From Bdellovibrionales bacterium (GTDB taxonomy: Bacteria; Bdellovibrionota; Bdellovibrionia; Bdellovibrionales; UBA1609), in the NCBI GenBank assembly GCA_965199825.1, contig OZ241329.1:1216001-1280000 (forward strand): a DNA stretch of 64,000 bases, in the 5' to 3' direction. Positions within the stretch are counted from its first letter, which is position 1, and every line of letters begins with the position of its first letter. The translations under genes were made by a program, and so were the position numbers. The notes beneath the pieces were generated by a model. That model saw nothing but the letters and a program-made list of their open reading frames with translations, searched no databases and was not told the DNA's origin. This document shows, piece after piece, positions 26,876 to 55,478 of the stretch.

Positions 26876-27389
26876 AAATGACACTGCCCCATTCATTTTA
26901 TCAATTTCAGGGCTGACAAATTCTTTTAATACTTGTCTTTGATTTTTCAAAAATGTTTTCCGTATAAATTAATTCCATCTAAGAATTTTTTAAAATTTCA
27001 AAGTCTTGGATGAGCTGCGTTTCAATCAACAAGGTGAGCTAGTTTTTTTTTGGGAGCTCGTCAATTCAGAAACTGAATGCAGAACTTATCTGTTTTAAAA
27101 TATAAATTTCGCAAACGGTTTATCAATGCCTCTGTTACTCTAGCCCTAAGCAACTAATTCCATCCAGATCTTTAAAAATGTCGAGACTAAATCCGGAAGT
27201 GTCTAAACTTTTAATAATGACAGTGCCCCCGTTAAATAGATTTTATTGTTTCGGCAAAATTAAATCTTATCAAAATTCGGCTATCATTTTTTTTAAAATG
27301 GCGTTACCCCAATTAAAAATATTTATCTAAATTCATTAAGCCCAGTTTGAAAAATCAATTTGCCCGTCATTAAAAATGACATTGCCCTC
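26876..27389 (+). repeat. Dispersed direct repeat AAATGACANTGCCCC upstream of the HUH transposase
   Basis: Copies at 26876 (aaatgacactgcccc), 27216 (aatgacagtgcccc), 27295 (aaaatggcgttacccc, degenerate) and 27372 (aaaaatgacattgccctc). Confidence 0.6.
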
Positions 27390-27436: not shown

Positions 27437-28003
27437 ATGAAACAGCTTTCTCTATTCGAATTCAAATCTAAAACTTCTCATGGAGGAAAGATCAATTTCG
27501 GTCGGCGAAAGTGTGCCAGACCTTTAGATAAAAATCGCATCCAACACGTCGTGATGAGATCTCAACATGCAAAGGGCGAGAGGAGCTTTAGGAATTTTAA
27601 ATTAAAAGTTGAGCTTGAAAATCTAATTCGCGACAAAGCTCAACGATATGGAATACGTATTGCCGAACTCAGCAACGTTGGAAATCATTTTCACATCCTA
27701 ATCCGTTTTCAAAATCGGCAACTGCTCAAAACATTTTTTAAGGTCACGATGGGGCTGATCGCACGCCTTGTTACCAAAGCTCAAAAAGGCAAACCATTTG
27801 GTCGATTTTGGGATGGAATTGTATTCACCCGAATTGTTTCAAAGGGACGAGATGAAGCACGGATGCGTGATTATTTGTACGCCAACAAAATTGAGGCTGA
27901 AGAGGGTGGATATTCTCGAAATCGGTTTGAGAGCGAAACTAAAAAGTTTTGGAGGGGACGGCAAAAGACGAGACGATCACACACAATGGAATTTGGCAGC
28001 TGA
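27437..28003 (+). mobile_element. IS200/RAYT-like Y1 (HUH) transposase
   Basis: HVVMRS, HUH motif NHFHILI, FWDG..FTRIV, candidate catalytic Tyr in DYLYAN. Confidence 0.75.
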
Positions 28004-28145
28004 GCCTAGCGTGCGCGCACTTTCTTAGAACGGATGAAATTTAAATTGATTTATTAGTTCGCCGTGAAAGGGCCCACACGAAATGAATTCACAGCCCGGC
28101 CAAATCGCAAAGCTCACCCACGCCCAACCAAACCCGAACGAAGGT

Positions 28146-31730: not shown

Positions 31731-31895
31731 GTGAGCTTTTATCTCGAAAAGTGGGTGTGGGTGCAATCTTATTTTAATATAAATAAAATATGTTTTTGTA
31801 GTTGGGGGTGGGCTGGCAACTTTGTTTCAGCAGTCGACTCTCCAAAATTTGGTATTGGTGTTTTCAGCGGGCACGATCAGTATTTCACCTCAACC

Positions 31896-32723
31896 TTAGT
31901 GCATCTGCCTTTCCATTTGATGGTGGGCACGATGATGTCCTGAGCAAAGCAAAGTCAGATTTTCAATAGCATCTGTGCCACCTTCCGATTTTGGAATCAA
32001 ATGATGAATGTCGAGATGTCGCTGCTGTGAACAACGTTGACCATCGTCATTGATATGTGTGCATTGGCTCTGGTGATTGTGATGAACTTTGCGCTTTTTA
32101 ATAGTGGATAGATTTTCAGTTTTTGAAGGCGGGCACGATTTCTTGAGTGGATCTATTTTTTGTAAAAGCGTTTTGACCGCCGAGACACAAACGTCATTGA
32201 TTGTTGCGGATCGACCCAACTTTTGACTCATCAAATCTTTTGCTCTTTCGAGCTCGTTAAATTCATCTCCGCTGACTGAATATGAAACTTGCACCCTCAC
32301 TGTTACACCTGCTTTACAATATCGTGCCCGCTCAGGAATTGCTTTTTCGGGTTGAGCTTTTGCAATCGCTTTTTCGAGGTTTCGTTTTGTACCCTGTGCG
32401 ATGGGTAACCACTCTGCTGCATTTTCTGGGGTCTAAACACTACATACTCGATTGCCTTTTGAAATCGATATTTCGCCCGAAGCGATTTGGGTTTTCAACT
32501 CAGGAACTTCGATGAATTTTTTTGCCAGTTTATTGAAAATGCTCGCAAGTTCTTCAGAAAGTTTGAGGTGTTTGGTTGAATACTCGAATAGTGAGCGGCA
32601 GCCAAATTGGGAGTAGGTTTTGTTTCGCCATACAATTTCTAAAGCACTAAGTAATTCGATTTCTGTTTTACGGTGATTGGCAGCGGCTGACACTGCCTGG
32701 GAATGTATTTTAGAATGGTCCAT
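31896..32723 (-). pseudogene. HNH endonuclease (DUF222/13E12-like N-terminus), interrupted by one in-frame TAG
   Basis: ORFs 32433-32723 and 31896-32300 are in the same frame; reading through TAG 32433-32435 gives SV*TPENAAEWLPIAQGTKRNLEK, colinear with paralog 53559-54380. Confidence 0.85.
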
Positions 32724-32978
32724 AAACTTCTCCTGTTTAAATGAAAGTTATATCACGGGTTTTTCAATTCATTTTTTTATAGGGAATCAACCTGCTTTTA
32801 ATTTCGTTAGTTTGAGGGGTTTTTTTGTTATGGCGCGAGTCGGTGAAGCCGGCGCAGCTTTAAAAATGTCCAATTCAATGCTGGGCAAACAAGTGCTGCT
32901 CTTGACGATGCAAAAAGGTGTCAACAATTTTTTGGCAAAAAATTAACTCGTATTGTACCATCGCTCACCTTTGAGTTC

Positions 32979-33066
32979 GCGGGCACGACAAATCTCTTCC
33001 GAAATAATTAACCTAAACCAGTCATAACACCGCCGGAGGTTTCGCGAAATGCAAGCGGGCACGACA
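32979..33066 (-). repeat. Two TGTCGTGCCCGC motif copies upstream of the HNH pseudogene
   Basis: gcgggcacgaca at 32979-32990 and 33055-33066; same motif and same gene-relative orientation as the 52841-53323 array. Confidence 0.8.
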
Positions 33067-48416: not shown

Positions 48417-50065
48417 TCACGGTTTTGATCGGCCATCGAGGTGTTGGCAAAACCAGTTTTTTAAAACGAATTCAAAATGCGTTCGATCAACAGGTTGAGA
48501 CCGTCGACCTCGACTTGCTGATCAAAGAGCACTTTGATGAGATTGGTGAGACTGAGTATCGCAAAAAAGAACACGCCGCATTTTTAGAAGCGATAAAAAA
48601 TAGAAATAAAAAAACATTTATCGCCTTAGGTGCCGGATTCAATTTTGAAATTTCATCTGGGATCGAAATTATTTGGATCCGGCGCGAAACCGATCGATGG
48701 GGCAGGATTTTTTTGGACCGCCCCCGACTTGAACCCCAGCTTTCGCCTCTTGAGGAGTATGCGGTGCGCTTTCGTCAAAGAGATGATCGCTTTCGCAGGC
48801 TCGCCCATCGCCAGTATATTTTGCGTGAAGGATCTTTTGATGAGCTCAAAGCCGACAGAGCTTTTTTTAAAATTGACCAAGAGCCGATGAATGGATCGCT
48901 CACGGTACTGCCCTGGATGCTTCAAACTTTGGAGAATGAAAAAACCGCGCGGTATCTTGAGCTTAGGGATGATCTGCTTGATAAAAGTCAAATTTCTCAA
49001 GCTTTAACTTTAGATAAATTATTTTTGATGACTCATAAAAAGTCCCCAGATTTTGAAGAGTCTAAAGCCGTTCATGATTGGCCACTCGAAAAATTTAAAA
49101 ATTCAAGCGGTGTGGTGTCGCTTCATCAGCGAAGCCATGACCTCAATAAAGATTTTAAACGTCTCGAAAATTTTGAGCGGGTGAAGTTTGCACCGATGAT
49201 CGAATCCTTTGAAGAGCTTGAGCTCTGCCATCAGTGGTGGAAGCAAAAACCGGATCAACGCAGTTTTTTACCCTGCTCGGAGGATGGACGCTGGAGTTGG
49301 TACCGGGCGCTCTTTGGGCCAAAAATGGAGATTGGGTTTTTTCGTTACGATGAGGGAGCCAGTCCCGATCAACCGACCTTTGCCGAATGGTTCTATAGCA
49401 GAAATTTCGAAAATCATTTTGCCGCAGTCTTAGGCGATCCTATTGAGCATTCATGGAGCCCCTCTTATCATACCAATTTTTTTGCTGGGTTTAAAATGCC
49501 CATGGTTAAAATTAAAATCTCCAAAGCCTCTGACCTTAAAATTTTAAAGTCGATGGGACTTGTGGCGGCTGCAATCACCTCACCATTCAAAAAACTTTTT
49601 AGAGCTGAAGCCGCAAACACTGTGTGCTGGGATTTTGTCGAACACAAATGGCAGTGGACCAATACAGACAAAGAGGGACTCAAAGTCGCTCTCGAAACAT
49701 TTCAGGAAATCAAAAATTGGGCGGTTTGGGGCGGCGGCGGATTGATCGAAACATTTAAAGACCAATTGCCCGAGGCCCAATACTATGGGGCCCGCAATGG
49801 ACAATTAAAAAGCGGAAAACAAAAAGAGTTTGATGGATTGATTTGGGCCTGCGGTCGAGGCACTCCATTTCAATTTCCGGTTAAAAGACCTCAGCTGATC
49901 TTGGATTTGAACTACACCGAAAACTCACCCGGTTTAGAGTTTGCATTAAGAACGGGTGCAAAATATTTTTCTGGTGCCACTTTTTTTAAAGCTCAGGCGC
50001 AAGCTCAGCAAAAATTCTTTGAAGCCTATTTACAAAAACGACCAAGGATGATCACTACTCTTTAA
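48413..50065 (+). CDS. Trifunctional shikimate kinase / type I dehydroquinase / shikimate dehydrogenase fusion (AroK-AroD-AroE)
   Basis: P-loop GHRGVGKTS plus ALGAG; ELRDD, VVSLH, VKFA (DHQase I); GDPIEHSWSP, TSPFK, AANT, NTD (AroE). Confidence 0.8.
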   Translation: MITVLIGHRGVGKTSFLKRIQNAFDQQVETVDLDLLIKEHFDEIGETEYRKKEHAAFLEAIKNRNKKTFIALGAGFNFEISSGIEIIWIRRETDRWGRIFLDRPRLEPQLSPLEEYAVRFRQRDDRFRRLAHRQYILREGSFDELKADRAFFKIDQEPMNGSLTVLPWMLQTLENEKTARYLELRDDLLDKSQISQALTLDKLFLMTHKKSPDFEESKAVHDWPLEKFKNSSGVVSLHQRSHDLNKDFKRLENFERVKFAPMIESFEELELCHQWWKQKPDQRSFLPCSEDGRWSWYRALFGPKMEIGFFRYDEGASPDQPTFAEWFYSRNFENHFAAVLGDPIEHSWSPSYHTNFFAGFKMPMVKIKISKASDLKILKSMGLVAAAITSPFKKLFRAEAANTVCWDFVEHKWQWTNTDKEGLKVALETFQEIKNWAVWGGGGLIETFKDQLPEAQYYGARNGQLKSGKQKEFDGLIWACGRGTPFQFPVKRPQLILDLNYTENSPGLEFALRTGAKYFSGATFFKAQAQAQQKFFEAYLQKRPRMITTL

Positions 50066-51280
50066 ATGTTTTTATTTCTAATTTTTCTGATCCCTGCCTT
50101 TGCCAGGCTTGATGCGCCTTTGCCCCAACAATATATTTCTGGCAAAGAGCTGTGCGAGCGATCACAAACTCAAAATGAGGATCGCGGTTTTTTTGTTGAT
50201 GTCCCGATTGATTATCAAGACCTGTCAAAGGGACTCACTCCCATCTACGGATTTTTTCCTTTTGCCCCCTTTGATCCCCAAAAGCCTTCACTGATTTATT
50301 TTTCGGGTGGACCTGGATATTCAGGGCATCATCTTTCGCTCGAGGATCATCCCGGAAGTTTATTTAGTGAATATAATGTTTTGCTTTTTGATCAACGTGG
50401 AACAGGGTGTTCTCGGCCTGCGACCTCTGAACTTTATAAATCTTTTGATTTTTATAGTTCTGTTGCCACAGCCCGCGATGCTGAAGCTCTACGGCAGCAC
50501 TTAAATATTTCAAAGTGGTCGGTGGTGGGACGCTCCTATGGAGCGGTGCCCGCATTTATATCGGCGTCGTTGTTTCAAACAAAAAGTGTTTCGCTCACCC
50601 TTTTTGCCGCATTAATGGATAAAAACAAACAGCATCAAACGATTGAAAAATATGATGAGTGGCTCCTACAGCATTCAGAGGTTCAAAAGGCTTTCAATGC
50701 CGCCACCTATTTACCTGGATATGATGAAATCCAAATTGAAGAATTTAAAGAAAATATTTTCCAGCGATTTTATGACCATATCAAAACACATGGAACGATT
50801 GGGCTCGAAGTCTTTTCACAAAAGATGATTGAGCAAATTCAATATGCAATTGCACCACAAATTTTAAGATCGCAAATCACCCATATCGAAGATTTATTTT
50901 CCAAGTCTGATCCAAATGTCTTTTATATTTTAAAATCAAAAGAAAATTTGTTGGGCGATATGCAACCGTTCGGTATGAAGCAATCTCTTTACGAACACTA
51001 TCCGGTTGAAATTCCGACTACCTTTTTTCAAGGTCTTCATGACCCGAGAACTCCGGCGTCTCGTGTTTTAAGATATTTAAAAAATCATCGTCAGGTCCAA
51101 GTTTATTTGTTCGATGAGGCCGGGCATATGGTGGTGAACCCTCAAGTCGAAGGTCAATCAAATTTATTTACAGCACCTTCGTGGGTTTTGGAACAAGCCC
51201 TTCGTGGTGAAATCAGCAAATACCCCTGCCAAAAGTTTTTAGAAAAAGGCACCAAGCGCTTACTTTTGTCGCGACCATAG
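50066..51280 (+). CDS. Secreted alpha/beta hydrolase (prolyl aminopeptidase-like)
   Basis: Signal peptide; GGPG, DQRGTG, GRSYG nucleophile elbow, QGLHDPRTP, AGH; C-terminal CQKFL. Confidence 0.85.
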   Translation: MFLFLIFLIPAFARLDAPLPQQYISGKELCERSQTQNEDRGFFVDVPIDYQDLSKGLTPIYGFFPFAPFDPQKPSLIYFSGGPGYSGHHLSLEDHPGSLFSEYNVLLFDQRGTGCSRPATSELYKSFDFYSSVATARDAEALRQHLNISKWSVVGRSYGAVPAFISASLFQTKSVSLTLFAALMDKNKQHQTIEKYDEWLLQHSEVQKAFNAATYLPGYDEIQIEEFKENIFQRFYDHIKTHGTIGLEVFSQKMIEQIQYAIAPQILRSQITHIEDLFSKSDPNVFYILKSKENLLGDMQPFGMKQSLYEHYPVEIPTTFFQGLHDPRTPASRVLRYLKNHRQVQVYLFDEAGHMVVNPQVEGQSNLFTAPSWVLEQALRGEISKYPCQKFLEKGTKRLLLSRP

Positions 51281-51347
51281 GCCTGTCTAAGAGATCCGCA
51301 GAAGTCGTACCAATCAGGTTTTCAGGCTCTAAGCCCGAAAACTTTGA

Positions 51348-52835
51348 ATGGCATTCTTACTCCTGTTCTTTAGTCTTAGTTTCGCAACCGAAGTCTCTCA
51401 CTGTACTCAAGGCAAAATTGACGGTGAATACCTCGTTCGCTACCAAGAGACTTTAAGTCAATTTCGTACATTCACTTTGAATGTGATCTTAAAACCTGAT
51501 CGTGTTTTGTATCGACCAAAAAATCTCAAAGTCGATGTGATCAGCGATCCATTTTTTTCGGCACAGGCAGTCAGGCGAGTTGAACCCACCATTTCGGTTT
51601 TTTCAAATCGTTCTGAGGCCGACATGCAAATTTTTTTAAACCGCGGCGATGTGCTCTCTGTAGAAGAAAATTGTTTAGTTCATTCTTCATCACAAGCCAT
51701 CACCAATGATCCACTAGTGGGCAAGCAATGGTATCTCAATAGCATTCAAGCACCAAAAGCTTGGAGCAAAACAAATGGCAGTCATGATGTAACCGTTGCG
51801 GTGATCGACACCGGTGTAGATATTGATCACGAAGACCTGATTGAAAATCGTTGGATCAATGAGGCCGAACTCAATGGCCGCCCCGGAGTTGATGACGATG
51901 CCAATGGCTATATTGATGATGTCTATGGTTATAATTTTAACGGCAAAAATCCAGATCCTCGTCCCGGAAATTTGAGCGATGATGAGCATGGAACACATGT
52001 GGCCGGAATTATCGCCGCTCGCGGAAATAATGCCCAAGGCATTGCAGGCATCGCATGGCACCTCAATATTATGCCGTTGCGAGTTTTTGCAAGCGGCGGC
52101 GATGCAGCAGTTTCTGATATGGTCTCAGCCGTTTTTTATGCGGTCGATAACGGAGCTCGAGTGATTAACTCAAGCGTTGGAGCTCTTGCTCCTGCAACAG
52201 AAGCCGAAAAGCAAGCCTACACCTATGCTCTAAACCACGGAGTGATTCCATTTGTGGCAGCCGGAAATAATGGATTGGATGCGATGGCCTCTTCACCCGC
52301 ATCGATCACTGGCGTATTTGTGGTGGGCAGTACCGATGGATCAAGCGACCTTGCAAACTTTAGCAATTATGGCAGCAAAGTAAATATGCTTGCTCCGGGT
52401 ACCGCAATTTATTCTACAGTGCTTAATAACCAATATGATTATTTGAGCGGAACCAGCATGTCGACACCGATTGTGGCGGGAGCTGCAGCGCTGATGCTTT
52501 CGGTGAATAATTCGCTTAAAGGTTCAGACATTCAAAAATTACTTATGAGTTCCGCCTCCACAATTAAAGTTCACCAAAGAACTGGTGTTGGCTCGTACAA
52601 ATTCCTTAATGTGGCGGGTGCAGTACAGTTGGCACAAAAATCGGTATCATCAAAGGTAATGTCGTTTGATTCTGAAGCGGGGCAAAGTACTTTGTCCTCG
52701 GAATCGCCTCAGTCGCCTTCGACGGGATGCGGAAGAGTTTCTGGGGACTCTTCAAATTCTGTGTTGAGCGTGATGATATTGATGATTCCACTTGTGATGC
52801 TGATTCAACGGCGCAGGCGGGCTCGTTTTGTTTGA
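51348..52835 (+). CDS. S8 subtilisin-like serine protease with C-terminal GC-TM-basic sorting signal
   Basis: VAVIDTG, HGTHVAG, AAGN, GTSMSTP; tail TGCG...VLSVMILMIPLVMLIQRRRR. Confidence 0.93.
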   Translation: MAFLLLFFSLSFATEVSHCTQGKIDGEYLVRYQETLSQFRTFTLNVILKPDRVLYRPKNLKVDVISDPFFSAQAVRRVEPTISVFSNRSEADMQIFLNRGDVLSVEENCLVHSSSQAITNDPLVGKQWYLNSIQAPKAWSKTNGSHDVTVAVIDTGVDIDHEDLIENRWINEAELNGRPGVDDDANGYIDDVYGYNFNGKNPDPRPGNLSDDEHGTHVAGIIAARGNNAQGIAGIAWHLNIMPLRVFASGGDAAVSDMVSAVFYAVDNGARVINSSVGALAPATEAEKQAYTYALNHGVIPFVAAGNNGLDAMASSPASITGVFVVGSTDGSSDLANFSNYGSKVNMLAPGTAIYSTVLNNQYDYLSGTSMSTPIVAGAAALMLSVNNSLKGSDIQKLLMSSASTIKVHQRTGVGSYKFLNVAGAVQLAQKSVSSKVMSFDSEAGQSTLSSESPQSPSTGCGRVSGDSSNSVLSVMILMIPLVMLIQRRRRARFV

Positions 52836-52840
52836 CGTGG

Positions 52841-53323
52841 TGTCGTGCCCGCAGGTTTGAGCGGCGGGGAATGGTTTCCGAAGTGCATTTCAGTTTGTCG
52901 TGCCCGCTGGGCTAGGGGAGCAGGAGGATGCTTTTCGAACTTCACTTGAGTGTGTCTTGCCCGCTGTTGTAAGCGGTGGGGGAATGGTTTTCGAAGTTCG
53001 TGTTAGTTTGTCGTCCCCGTCGTTTTTTTGAATGTGGCGTTCGAAGGATCAATCGCAGCTCTGGGCAGTTTATCGTGCCCGCATTTTTTTGGGCAGCTTG
53101 AGAATGGCTTCCGAAATTTATGTTAGTGTGCCGTGCCCGCAGGTTTGAGCGGCGAGGACATTGTTTCCGAAGTTCATTTTAGTTTGTCGTGCCCGCAGGG
53201 CTATGGGAGCGGGAGGATGCTTTTCGAACTTCGCTTGAGTATGTCGTGCCCGCTGTTTCAACCCGCAACTCAAGGTGACGCCGTAAAGCTGAGTCGCAGC
53301 TCTAGGCAGTTTATAGTGCCCGC
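52841..53323 (+). repeat. Tandem array of 9 degenerate units (55-70 bp) with core TGTCGTGCCCGC
   Basis: Cores at 52841, 52896, 52953, 53009, 53071, 53129, 53185, 53242 and 53312; second block ATG..TT(T/C)CGAA in most units. Confidence 0.9.
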
Positions 53324-53558
53324 AATTTTTAAATAAAAATAAATAATCAAAATTTGTTGACACGTTTTTTACTGTTATCTTTGGGCCTGAGTTGAGTTTG
53401 CGAGTTGCGACGCTTTTGTTTTTCTGTCTTACTCAAATAAAATGCTTTAGTGGGCCTAATAGTCGTAGAAATTAAGACGTTAGAAAACCTCCGCCCATAG
53501 ACCAAAATCTTATTTCTCAAAACCCATGATAAGATCTTCTTTTAAACAGGAGATAGTT

Positions 53559-54380
53559 ATGGATCATTTGGTTGTTCACTCTCAAGCTGTCAAAGCGGCT
53601 CAAGCTCATCGTAAATCTGAAATGGATTTGCTCAATGCTTTAGAAATTGTTTGGAAAAATAAAACTTTTTATAAGTTTGGATGTAATTCATTGTTTGAAT
53701 ACTCAACTCAGCAATTAAAACTTTCTGAAGAGATGGCCAGCATCGTCAATAAAATTGCCAAAAAATTTACTGAACTGCCTGAATTAAAACTAGGCATGGA
53801 GTCGGGTGATATCTCACTCTCAAAAGTCAATCGCATCGCTTCTGTTGTCACTCCAGACAATGTTCAACACTGGATAGATTTAGCCAAAGGCACAAAACGC
53901 AATCTAGAAAAAGAAATCGCAAAAGTTCAGCCAGAAAAAGCAATTCCCGAGCGGGCACGATATCAAAAAGCTGGGGACACTTTGAGGGTTCAGATTTCTT
54001 TTTCGGTCACGCAAGAAGAATACGCGGTTTTTGAACGCACCAGAGATCTGTTGAGCCAAAAATTAAAACGTCCCGCGAGTATTGGCCAAACACATGTTGC
54101 CGCCATTTATGAACTCAACCAAAAATTAGATCCACTTAAAAAACCGATCCGAGAAAAAGCAACGGGCACCACAAAATTGACACTTAATTTAAAAAGAAAA
54201 TTGCACCACAAATACGACAGTCAGTGCACGCATGTTGATTCAAAAGGACAGCGCTGTACCCAGAGGCGGCATCTTGATATTCATCATATTGTTCCTCAGT
54301 CACACGGTGGAACTCATACCGAAGATAATCTCACCCTGCTGTGTTCGGGGCACCATCGTGCCCACCATCGAAATATGTGA
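53559..54380 (+). CDS. HNH endonuclease (DUF222/13E12-like helical N-terminus), intact
   Basis: QCTH...RC..RHLDIHHIVP.SHGG...NLTLLCSGHHRAHH; AACAGGAG RBS before ATG 53559. Confidence 0.9.
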   Translation: MDHLVVHSQAVKAAQAHRKSEMDLLNALEIVWKNKTFYKFGCNSLFEYSTQQLKLSEEMASIVNKIAKKFTELPELKLGMESGDISLSKVNRIASVVTPDNVQHWIDLAKGTKRNLEKEIAKVQPEKAIPERARYQKAGDTLRVQISFSVTQEEYAVFERTRDLLSQKLKRPASIGQTHVAAIYELNQKLDPLKKPIREKATGTTKLTLNLKRKLHHKYDSQCTHVDSKGQRCTQRRHLDIHHIVPQSHGGTHTEDNLTLLCSGHHRAHHRNM

Positions 54381-54470
54381 CCCCTTCACAATCATTTTTT
54401 ACAGAGGTGAGATCAACACCTTGCAAAGATCTTTCAGGCCGCTCAGAATTAAAGCACAAAGCGAGGTCTC

Positions 54471-55478
54471 ATGTCAGCCAACCAATTTGGAAACTTATTT
54501 TGTTTAACAACGTTTGGTGAAAGCCATGGGCCGGCGATGGGTGCGCTCATCGATGGGTGCCCTGCGGGTGTCGAATTTGATCAACAACTGCTCTTAACTC
54601 AACTCGCACGGCGAAGGCCTGGCCAAAGTGCGGTGGTCAGCTCACGTCAAGAGGAAGACCTTCCCGAAATTTTAAGTGGGGTCTTTCAAGGAAAAACTTT
54701 GGGCACTCCCATACTCATCGTGGTTAAAAATAAAGATCAGCGCTCGGAAGATTATCAATCGCTTAAAGATCGGATAGGCCATGCCGATGATGTGTGGCGA
54801 GAGAAATTTGCACACGTTGACCCGCGCGGGGGAGGACGCAGCTCGGGGCGCGAGACTCTCTCAAGAGTGTTAGGTGGTGCGGTGGCCGAGATGTTTTTAA
54901 AAAGCCTGCACCCCGATTTAAAAATTGTGGTGGCGGTTGAGCAAATTGGTAAAAACAAATCCACAATTCCTCAAGACCTCACGCGGGAACGAGTGGATCA
55001 ATCTTTAGTTCGCATGCCCGACCTTCAAGTTTCAGATCAAGTCATAAAAATTTTAGAGCAAGCCAAGATCGATGGCGAAAGTTATGGCGGGGTAGCTCTA
55101 TTGCGAATTACCGGAATGCCGAAGTCCTTAGGCCAGCCGGTGTTTCATAAACTCAAAAGTGATTTGGCCTCGGCGTTGATGGGAGTCGGTGCGACTTGTG
55201 GTGTGGAGTTTGGATCGGCGGACGTCAGCCTTAAAGGAACAGAATTTCATAAACAAAATCTATATGGTGGAGTGCGTGGTGGGATTTCGACGGGTGAGCT
55301 TTTAGAAGTTCGGGTGAAGTTTAAGCCCACGTCGAGTATTTTGGATGTAGCAAAAAAAGGCAGGCATGATCCTTGTATCGTACCTAGAGCGTGCAGTGTG
55401 ATCGAAGGTATGGCGGCTCTTGTTTTGGCGGATCATGTTCTGTGGCAGCGGCTTGATCAGTTGACCATTCCGCGATAA
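54471..55478 (+). CDS. aroC: Chorismate synthase
   Basis: TFGESHG, RRRPGQS, GGGRSSGRET, GGISTG, FKPTSSI, GRHDPCI. Confidence 0.96.
   Translation: MSANQFGNLFCLTTFGESHGPAMGALIDGCPAGVEFDQQLLLTQLARRRPGQSAVVSSRQEEDLPEILSGVFQGKTLGTPILIVVKNKDQRSEDYQSLKDRIGHADDVWREKFAHVDPRGGGRSSGRETLSRVLGGAVAEMFLKSLHPDLKIVVAVEQIGKNKSTIPQDLTRERVDQSLVRMPDLQVSDQVIKILEQAKIDGESYGGVALLRITGMPKSLGQPVFHKLKSDLASALMGVGATCGVEFGSADVSLKGTEFHKQNLYGGVRGGISTGELLEVRVKFKPTSSILDVAKKGRHDPCIVPRACSVIEGMAALVLADHVLWQRLDQLTIPR

Follow-up and report, generated by a model that had tools for sequence, protein, structure and literature searches.

The window, as we call the whole stretch of 64,000 nucleotides analyzed here, belongs to a 2.84-Mb genome in five contigs, whose relatives at the protein level are MAGs of Bdellovibrionota and Myxococcota. 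Its right-hand part contains a tandem array led by the motif TGTCGTGCCCGC, which begins 6 nt past the stop codon of a protease gene and is followed by a leader and by the gene of a predicted HNH nuclease (Table 1). A preliminary description had placed this element between the protease gene and aroC. The position is correct, but the foreign block is larger than described, as it also includes the hydrolase and protease genes. Among related genomes with aroC, aroK/D/E directly adjoins it in 12 of 20, and a hydrolase, subtilase or HNH gene was found within 1.5 kb of aroC at none of 21 loci in relatives. The uninterrupted aroK/D/E-aroC junction in relatives indicates that the 4.4-kb block is lineage-specific.

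Table 1. Features of the HNH locus and of related loci in the window.
Feature	Position	Strand	Remarks
alpha/beta-hydrolase and subtilase genes	50066..52835	+	with the element, between aroK/D/E and aroC
Nine-unit motif-led array	52841..53323	+	degenerate tandem duplicates of a ~56-bp unit
Last motif copy of the array	53312..53323	+	in close paralog pairs, marks the left end of the conserved element
TTGAC-N4-TTTT box, -35-like	53357..53370	+	left end of the leader
Fixed-length leader	53357..53535	+	173 nt from TTGAC to the -10 hexamer; compositional dyad
AAAACCCATG-A-TAAGAT box, extended -10-like	53519..53535	+	TG 53527, hexamer 53530-53535
Ribosome-binding site AGGAGA	53548..53553	+	
273-aa nuclease gene	53559..54380	+	predicted ParB/KorB-type HTH, ribbon-helix-helix-like and Zn-ribbon HNH parts
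In-gene motif	53951..53962	-	codons of ERARY
In-gene linker motif	54162..54173	-	codons of TGTT
3'-end motif	54354..54365	+	codons of HRAH; marks the right end of the conserved element
Second element copy	31867..33066	-	HNH gene 32723-31896, broken by one TAG
Second element copy, motifs	33055-33066, 32979-32990; 31867-31878	-	upstream; after the stop
Second element copy, leader	TTGAC at 32924	-	172 nt long
Y1 gene	27437-28003		three upstream ATGACANTGCCC copies at 26878, 27217 and 27376

All nine units reported in the preliminary description were recovered with their periods (55, 57, 56, 62, 58, 56, 57 and 70 bp), the TGTCGTGCCCGC cores starting at 52841, 52896, 52953, 53009, 53071, 53129, 53185, 53242 and 53312. 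Four cores are exact, three have one mismatch and two have two. The window as a whole holds 18 motif matches against 3.1 expected, a number reached in none of 100 shuffles. The second block that had been noted in most units, ATG..TT(T/C)CGAA, was found in units 1, 2, 3, 5 and 7, and nearly so in unit 6. This block occurs 36 times in the genome and lies within 60 nt of a strict core four times, always in this array, which indicates that the dual-block appearance reflects local history. The segments between the cores had been taken for variable, yet they are not independent spacers but homologous to one another, the tails of units 1, 2, 3, 5, 6 and 7 being 58-88% alike against a shuffled baseline of 48%. 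The higher-order duplication proposed earlier is borne out: units 1 and 6, and likewise units 2 and 7, are 88% alike outside the core, and units 4 and 8 have a common tail. The layout is that of units 1-5 followed by a second, partly deleted copy formed by units 6, 7, 8 and 9, in which unit 8 joins the head of unit 3 to the tail of unit 4 and unit 9 resembles unit 5. The homology among the unit tails therefore identifies the array as a diverged tandem duplication with a second-order duplication. There is no long open frame in it, as expected of the non-coding array that had been described, except for one 81-aa minus-strand ORF over the last units. Run X1, possibly the source sample, yielded a short-read contig identical to the window over 49500-54068, so that the array is not an assembly error.

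The HNH gene opens 235 nt past the last core and is uninterrupted, in agreement with the ~235 bp and the intact gene noted earlier. Structure models of its product (pLDDT 89.9 for the full length and 96.1 for residues 1-200) were compared with known folds. For residues 14-125, the top four matches were DNA-binding domains of KorB, ParB and Spo0J (Z 6.4-7.0, 90-98 aligned residues, rmsd 2.9-3.5 for three of the four); residues 141-199 matched many ribbon-helix-helix (RHH) proteins (Z 4.2-5.1), and residues 209-273 matched the HNH fold (Z 6-8; 7.3 for the GVE2 HNH). The protein thus models as a ParB/KorB-type HTH followed by RHH and HNH domains, with modest Z scores for the first two. The Pfam HNH model scored 34.5 bits against a cut-off of 21.4, HTH_ParB scored in 5 of 112 family members, and DUF222 in 3 of 112 at E<0.01. 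The residues predicted to bind Zn and to act in catalysis in an active HNH nuclease are present: C223, C233, H243, N257 and C262 are invariant in 40 sequences and H265 is nearly so. We found no transposase domain in the protein, no Foldseek match at E<=0.001, and no relatives in viral contigs when the 273-aa protein was the query. The family profile finds 5,713 clusters at 50% identity (E<=1e-30), and 20 of 40 related genomes have matches, several with 10-35. In the papers searched, the family had no described function and its motifs and leader did not appear, although a description elsewhere in print is conceivable.

Within its own genome, the HNH protein has 28 tblastn matches, 27 of which start at residue 1. 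Full-length open frames account for 24 of the 28, with one copy truncated, one internally deleted and one interrupted by TAG (the second copy in Table 1). The paralogs are 47-83% identical to the copy studied here, at pS 0.61-0.76 and pN 0.10-0.33, and five close paralog pairs have pN/pS of about 0.08-0.17. At least one motif precedes the gene in 26 of 27 paralogs, at least two in 23 and at least five in 11; a separate array scan does show copies at the one paralog that scored zero. At one extreme, these arrays are perfect minisatellites with a period of 18-25 bp and as many as 27 units; at the other, their units are irregular and measure 30-180 bp. Unit lengths across loci are 16-180 nt, and many arrays have identical 6-8-nt tails. 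Two paralogs (C1:534200-534540 and 575300-575640) have degenerate downstream arrays, grown from the HRAH gene end.

The strict motif occurs 415 times in the genome, 187 of these near HNH genes and most of the others in solo arrays. Thirteen clusters were flagged away from HNH genes, comprising three HNH-array tails, one coding repeat and nine true solo arrays with 9-38 strict copies each, whereas most of the 45 isolated hits fall in long adhesin-like ORFs, where they encode AGTT/VGTT. The proposition that the motif spreads independently of HNH genes thus applies to the nine solo arrays but not to most isolated hits. As a tandem pattern, the motif gave 240 matches in this genome and a single one in the 383 other genomes of its order. 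Array units at many loci also contain another recurring block, AACACCGCCGGARATTT, in either orientation, and units are therefore exchanged between loci; 22 of its 92 occurrences lie within 150 nt of a motif (examples on C1 are 246439, 512616 and 1249026, the last being window position 33026), and it also occurs near some Y1 genes. At HNH loci, the 60-nt strip ahead of the first motif is G+T-rich (mean 0.66 vs 0.50), and G+T reaches 0.70 or more there at 10 of 25 loci against 0.7% of genomic 60-mers. Several solo arrays have a C+A bias on their 3' side. The bias towards G+T before arrays and towards C+A after them suggests long-lived single-stranded exposure or biased synthesis.

The motif is also present inside the genes. 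Its plus-strand copy at the 3' end is found in 26 of 27 paralogs and the minus-strand ERARY copy in 22 of 27, while the linker copy is on the plus strand in 15 and on the minus strand in 11 of 27, its orientation following the clades of the protein tree. Over 57 conserved codon columns with four- or six-fold degeneracy (25 paralogs), the top codon has a mean share of 0.53, and the only near-invariant columns, R267 (CGT, 25/25), A268 (GCC, 24/25) and R134 (CGA, 22/24), all fall within motif copies. Selection on both strands together with the switch in orientation would be expected of a site in double-stranded DNA rather than of an RNA element, and points to the motif being such a site. When close paralog pairs were aligned, similarity extended from the last upstream motif (-222..-232) to just past the 3' motif (+804..+812), with degraded similarity beyond the motif ends in some pairs. 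The unit so delimited, of about 1.04 kb, consists of motif, fixed-length leader, gene and motif. Its ends have neither a target-site duplication nor a terminal inverted repeat, and a search of other genera and of the related strain X3, which is thinly covered and lacks coverage of 52704-53771, yielded no empty allele for any single insertion. A 500-nt identical tract in one paralog pair is a sign of gene conversion.

The preliminary description missed what occupies the stretch between array and gene, namely a leader of nearly constant length. Its right box, of the general form AAAA-CCCRTG-N-TA-NNN-T, precedes the ribosome site, and we infer from its sequence that it is a promoter element. In 24 of the 25 paralogs with both boxes (27 examined), the -10 hexamer lies 171-174 nt from TTGAC, with a mean gapless identity of 39% among the interiors; an ordinary promoter spacing on the same measure would be 23. 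The two most divergent paralogs (C1:798484-799110 and 804227-805042) lack the long leader, and their promoter-like box, TTGCAG-16-TG-N-TA, is contiguous as in an ordinary promoter. Across genomes, both boxes were found at 72 of 87 loci by a search that allowed spacings of 151-270 and chose the TTGAC nearest 175 where there were several; 70 of these loci have spacings of 169-192 nt, clustered at 169-176 (42 loci), 178-179 (7) and 187-192 (21).

The leader interior has T-tracts in its left half and A-tracts in its right half. The composition of the interior has a two-fold axis that scales with the leader class. It lies at sums 173-175 (r 0.25-0.28), where only a peak at 125, based on fewer pairs, is higher, and in the longer class (187-192) at sum 189 (r 0.30); the median correlations are 0.04 and 0.01 for the two classes. 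RNA folding of the leader gave z of about -0.4 and no base-pair excess, and complementarity for a long hairpin was not above the row-shuffled control. No solo leaders without a gene were found at E<0.1, and a sigma-70 promoter scan of 52600-54600 returned none. The compositional axis, taken with the lack of base-pair excess and of a fold signal, suggests that the leader is a protein-wrapped DNA segment.

Related families in other genomes have motifs of their own. In G035, whose proteins are 27-31% identical, GACCCGCGCCAGC occurs 65 times against 1 for the control; it is found in the linker, in arrays ahead of the HNH genes and in solo arrays, the latter flanked by G/T-rich sequence. For one HNH gene of G013, copies of a palindrome lie upstream, in its linker and beyond its stop codon, and in G038 ACTTTAAGCAG is found upstream, three times inside the gene and after the stop. 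In G015, a direct repeat that contains a palindrome and measures up to 36 nt encloses one HNH subfamily, and the flanks of another are different; a motif specific to the host rather than to the family is disfavored by these two subfamilies. A 35/36-bp array lies ahead of the leader in the GC-rich soil contig L071. These sequences indicate that each protein family has its own motif. The G036 and JBFWYS copies, however, have the leader without clear arrays, which speaks against generality. A universal terminal direct repeat was considered and is weak outside the source genome (G000) and G015, since 9 of 58 loci from other genomes exceeded the 95th control percentile, where about 3 are expected. 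At one G015 locus (L053, G015:C46), the HNH copy lies inside a long inverted repeat (alignment score 60.5) and its sister copies differ. At six loci in several other genomes (L008, L043, L049, L050, L146 and L151), 6-8-bp microsatellites are located directly upstream or downstream of the HNH genes.

These comparisons support the proposal that the repeats serve an undescribed selfish element as sites of binding or cleavage: the motif goes with the HNH family, is constrained at synonymous positions inside the genes and changes with the protein family. The layout of the element and its motif-to-motif ends can likewise be read from the alignments. We consider it somewhat probable that a self-propagating HNH element, present in many copies, has the array as its left flank. 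In the mechanism that we are inclined to prefer, the HTH or RHH domain of the protein would bind the motif in double-stranded form, and the tethered HNH domain would nick near the bound site. Repair of the nick by slippage, strand displacement or gene conversion would duplicate motif-led segments locally and occasionally place a copy of the entire element, or of an array alone, at another intergenic site. The extra upstream motif copies are tandem duplicates that later diverged, and the bound sites and fixed-length leader would probably also repress the nuclease gene. Most paralogs are old, with saturated synonymous sites, so that mobility may lie in the past, and gene conversion alone could have produced the tracts common to paralogs.

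More tentatively, it is possible that all these features belong to one widespread and undescribed class of mobile elements of Bdellovibrionota and Myxococcota, characterized by an HTH-RHH-HNH protein, transposase-free copying and a split promoter. In such a class, the protein would recognize a family-specific motif, nick beside it and copy arrays as well as its own gene. The -35 and extended -10 elements would be held exactly 150 or about 167 bp beyond normal spacing, a distance set by a two-fold symmetric DNA spool that may be a protein-wrapped or excisable switch.

Among known systems, the closest analogs are the REPtrons, in which TnpA-REP/RAYT enzymes are associated with REP, BIME or REPIN repeats, and the TIRtrons (PMC8266576, PMC6006769, PMC3733652). 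As REPtrons are described in the passages of these reports that define them, the HNH system resembles them in having a nuclease gene amid a variable number of short, family-specific repeats that are concentrated near the cognate gene, with gene-less repeat clusters elsewhere in the genome. It differs in its enzyme, which is an HNH protein with HTH and RHH domains rather than an HUH/Y1 enzyme, and in its repeat, as TGTCGTGCCCGC is non-palindromic, directly oriented and lacks the tetranucleotide-tagged palindrome (GTAG plus hairpin) of REP sequences; the motifs of some other HNH families are palindromes. According to the same passages, tnpA-REP is mostly single-copy, whereas the HNH gene has 28 copies, and a motif conserved inside the coding sequence and a fixed-length leader also set the HNH system apart. 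By analogy, we lean towards a system that works in a REPtron-like manner with HNH in place of the HUH enzyme, and that is not RNA-guided. Classical insertion sequences have a DDE, HUH or serine transposase, terminal inverted repeats and near-identical copies; here, the HNH protein has no transposase domain, the motifs at the element ends are direct, and the copies are 47-83% identical to the one studied.

REP13E12 loci encode HNH proteins. These mycobacterial DUF222-HNH loci are described as dispersed paralogs with no defined function that undergo gene conversion (PMC13061034). The HNH system shares with them, as they appear in those passages, the dispersed paralogous loci with gene conversion. 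Its family has a weak DUF222 signal, and an Atlas neighbor cluster has 12% DUF222. It differs in that the 273-aa protein is shorter and has no match to DUF222 (PF02720), and the passages on REP13E12 in that report make no mention of motif arrays or a fixed-length leader. The HNH system is probably a distant cousin of these loci. Small phage HNH enzymes, which nick a single strand and can be targeted through fusion to a DNA-binding domain, have a Zn-ribbon HNH domain of the same fold, but in the part of PMC3592412 that describes them they are 95-300-aa phage proteins encoded beside terminase.

A rather unlikely alternative is that the motif is solely the operator of its own gene, so that slippage-grown arrays titrate the protein and damp a toxic nuclease. 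The HNH genes would then be domesticated, for example as damage-induced or prey-DNA nucleases, and would not have made the arrays. KorB operators, parS, TraM sbm and omega heptads are site arrays of plasmid partition and repressor systems. Like the array studied here, they consist of iterated short sites beside the gene of an HTH or RHH DNA-binding protein; the HNH system differs in being chromosomal, in 28 copies and fused to a nuclease, and no ParA or Rep partner was seen at the HNH loci examined. HTH and RHH folds are typical of repressors, and an operator would be compatible with in-gene sites in either orientation, with strong purifying selection on old paralogs, and with perfect 16-25-bp minisatellites, the product expected of slippage. 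It leaves unexplained, however, the nine arrays far from any HNH gene, the motif-to-motif element boundaries, the G+T-rich strip before the first motif and the 28 dispersed single-gene copies.

The genome also has 17 Y1 genes (IS200/RAYT-like), a family separate from HNH. Fourteen of them are preceded by an irregular motif of their own, ATGACANTGCCC, of which 39 of 44 copies lie near Y1 genes and 0 near HNH genes. A Y1 family with its own motif in the same genome strengthens the REPtron analogy and, at the same time, provides the main rival enzyme: the HNH motif could be the substrate of Y1 enzymes and the HNH gene a passenger, like TnpB/IscB in IS200/IS605 elements. We judge this improbable. 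In its favor, TGTCGTGCCCGC and ATGACANTGCCC have TGCCC in common, one solo TGTCGTGCCCGC array precedes a Y1 gene, and the Y1-linked word GAACGAAGGTA abuts the ends of motif arrays 12 times against 2.7 by chance. On the other hand, TGTCGTGCCCGC and ATGACANTGCCC segregate by gene family, the HNH motifs of G013, G015, G036 and G038 are at none of the tested Y1 loci, G035 has HNH arrays and no Y1 match with the query used, and the motif is without a tetranucleotide-plus-hairpin structure.

The word GAACGAAGGTA (consensus GYGWACGAWGGTA) is itself the most over-represented 11-mer of the genome, with 61 exact copies (117-fold), located in and between genes with no strand bias, among them those at window positions 28136 and 28919. 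In relatives, it occurs 16 times in G040 and at most 6 times in 39 others, and related words are found upstream of one Y1 subfamily. A Chi- or KOPS-like role was also considered and rejected, as 13 of 25 HNH genes are co-directional with replication and 33 of 61 GAACGAAGGTA copies are on the leading strand.

The preliminary description had offered, as its other reading, a processed RNA array that guides or binds the nuclease in the manner of TIGR or CRISPR. The repeats directly upstream of an HNH gene, the two conserved blocks that alternate with less conserved stretches at the nine-unit locus, and the array start 6 nt past the protease stop, which would allow read-through, are all compatible with it. 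TIGR-Tas arrays have 36-nt units with two 8-12-nt repeats and 9-12-nt spacers (PMC12045711). As TIGR-TasH is portrayed in the relevant part of that report, its HNH gene beside a 5-15-unit array with two conserved blocks is matched here at the nine-unit locus alone, where units are 55-70 nt instead of 36, and blocks of 12 and about 12 nt are 17-20 nt apart instead of 9; the unit tails are paralogous, and the layout is not kept at other loci. No Nop family was detected by Pfam scans of the protein or of its 112 family members, and no Nop-domain chains were among the matches listed in two wide fold searches. On the Pfam scans, the protein falls outside TIGR-Tas; HTH-, RHH- and HNH-like parts take up its 273 residues. 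CRISPR arrays combine constant repeats with unique foreign spacers; here, the tails of six units resemble one another, and the variable parts gave nothing beyond chance against 50,697 phage records and the own genome. OMEGA IscB/IsrB systems combine a RuvC-containing IscB with a structured omega RNA (HEARO); here, the NF040563 score was 30.9 against a cut-off of 175 and covered the HNH part only.

The RNA itself gave no consistent signal. Folding of the array yielded z of -0.69 on the plus strand and -2.45 on the minus strand with a per-unit mean of about 0, the units had no hairpin excess, an Rfam scan of 52700-54500 returned no match, and 52600-54600 has one terminator-like hairpin (53062-53081), below the chance mean. 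RNA reads were limited to 8 partial ones from one run and are uninformative. With unit lengths as variable as those above, a second block near the core at this locus only, and the motif conserved on the antisense strand of the gene, we regard an RNA array as very unlikely. That the array is neutral minisatellite debris or an assembly artefact is scarcely credible: its units are plain tandem duplicates, as debris would be, but synonymous sites are constrained, family-specific motifs recur in several genomes, and the short-read contig is identical.

The array is therefore real and one example of a genome-wide system of a nuclease and its cognate repeat, not a guide array, and the gene is a multi-copy, probably selfish nuclease gene in a predatory bacterium. 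A candidate cognate site, element ends and a promoter region in one genome make this HNH family directly testable. Its leader represents a conserved constraint on DNA length, without conserved sequence or RNA structure, that extends from Bdellovibrionota to GC-rich soil contigs. If the nuclease spreads its own motif, it would constitute a second, HUH-independent route to bacterial REP-like repeats and minisatellites, and the family would provide a natural repertoire of compact nickases whose many specificities are set by protein.
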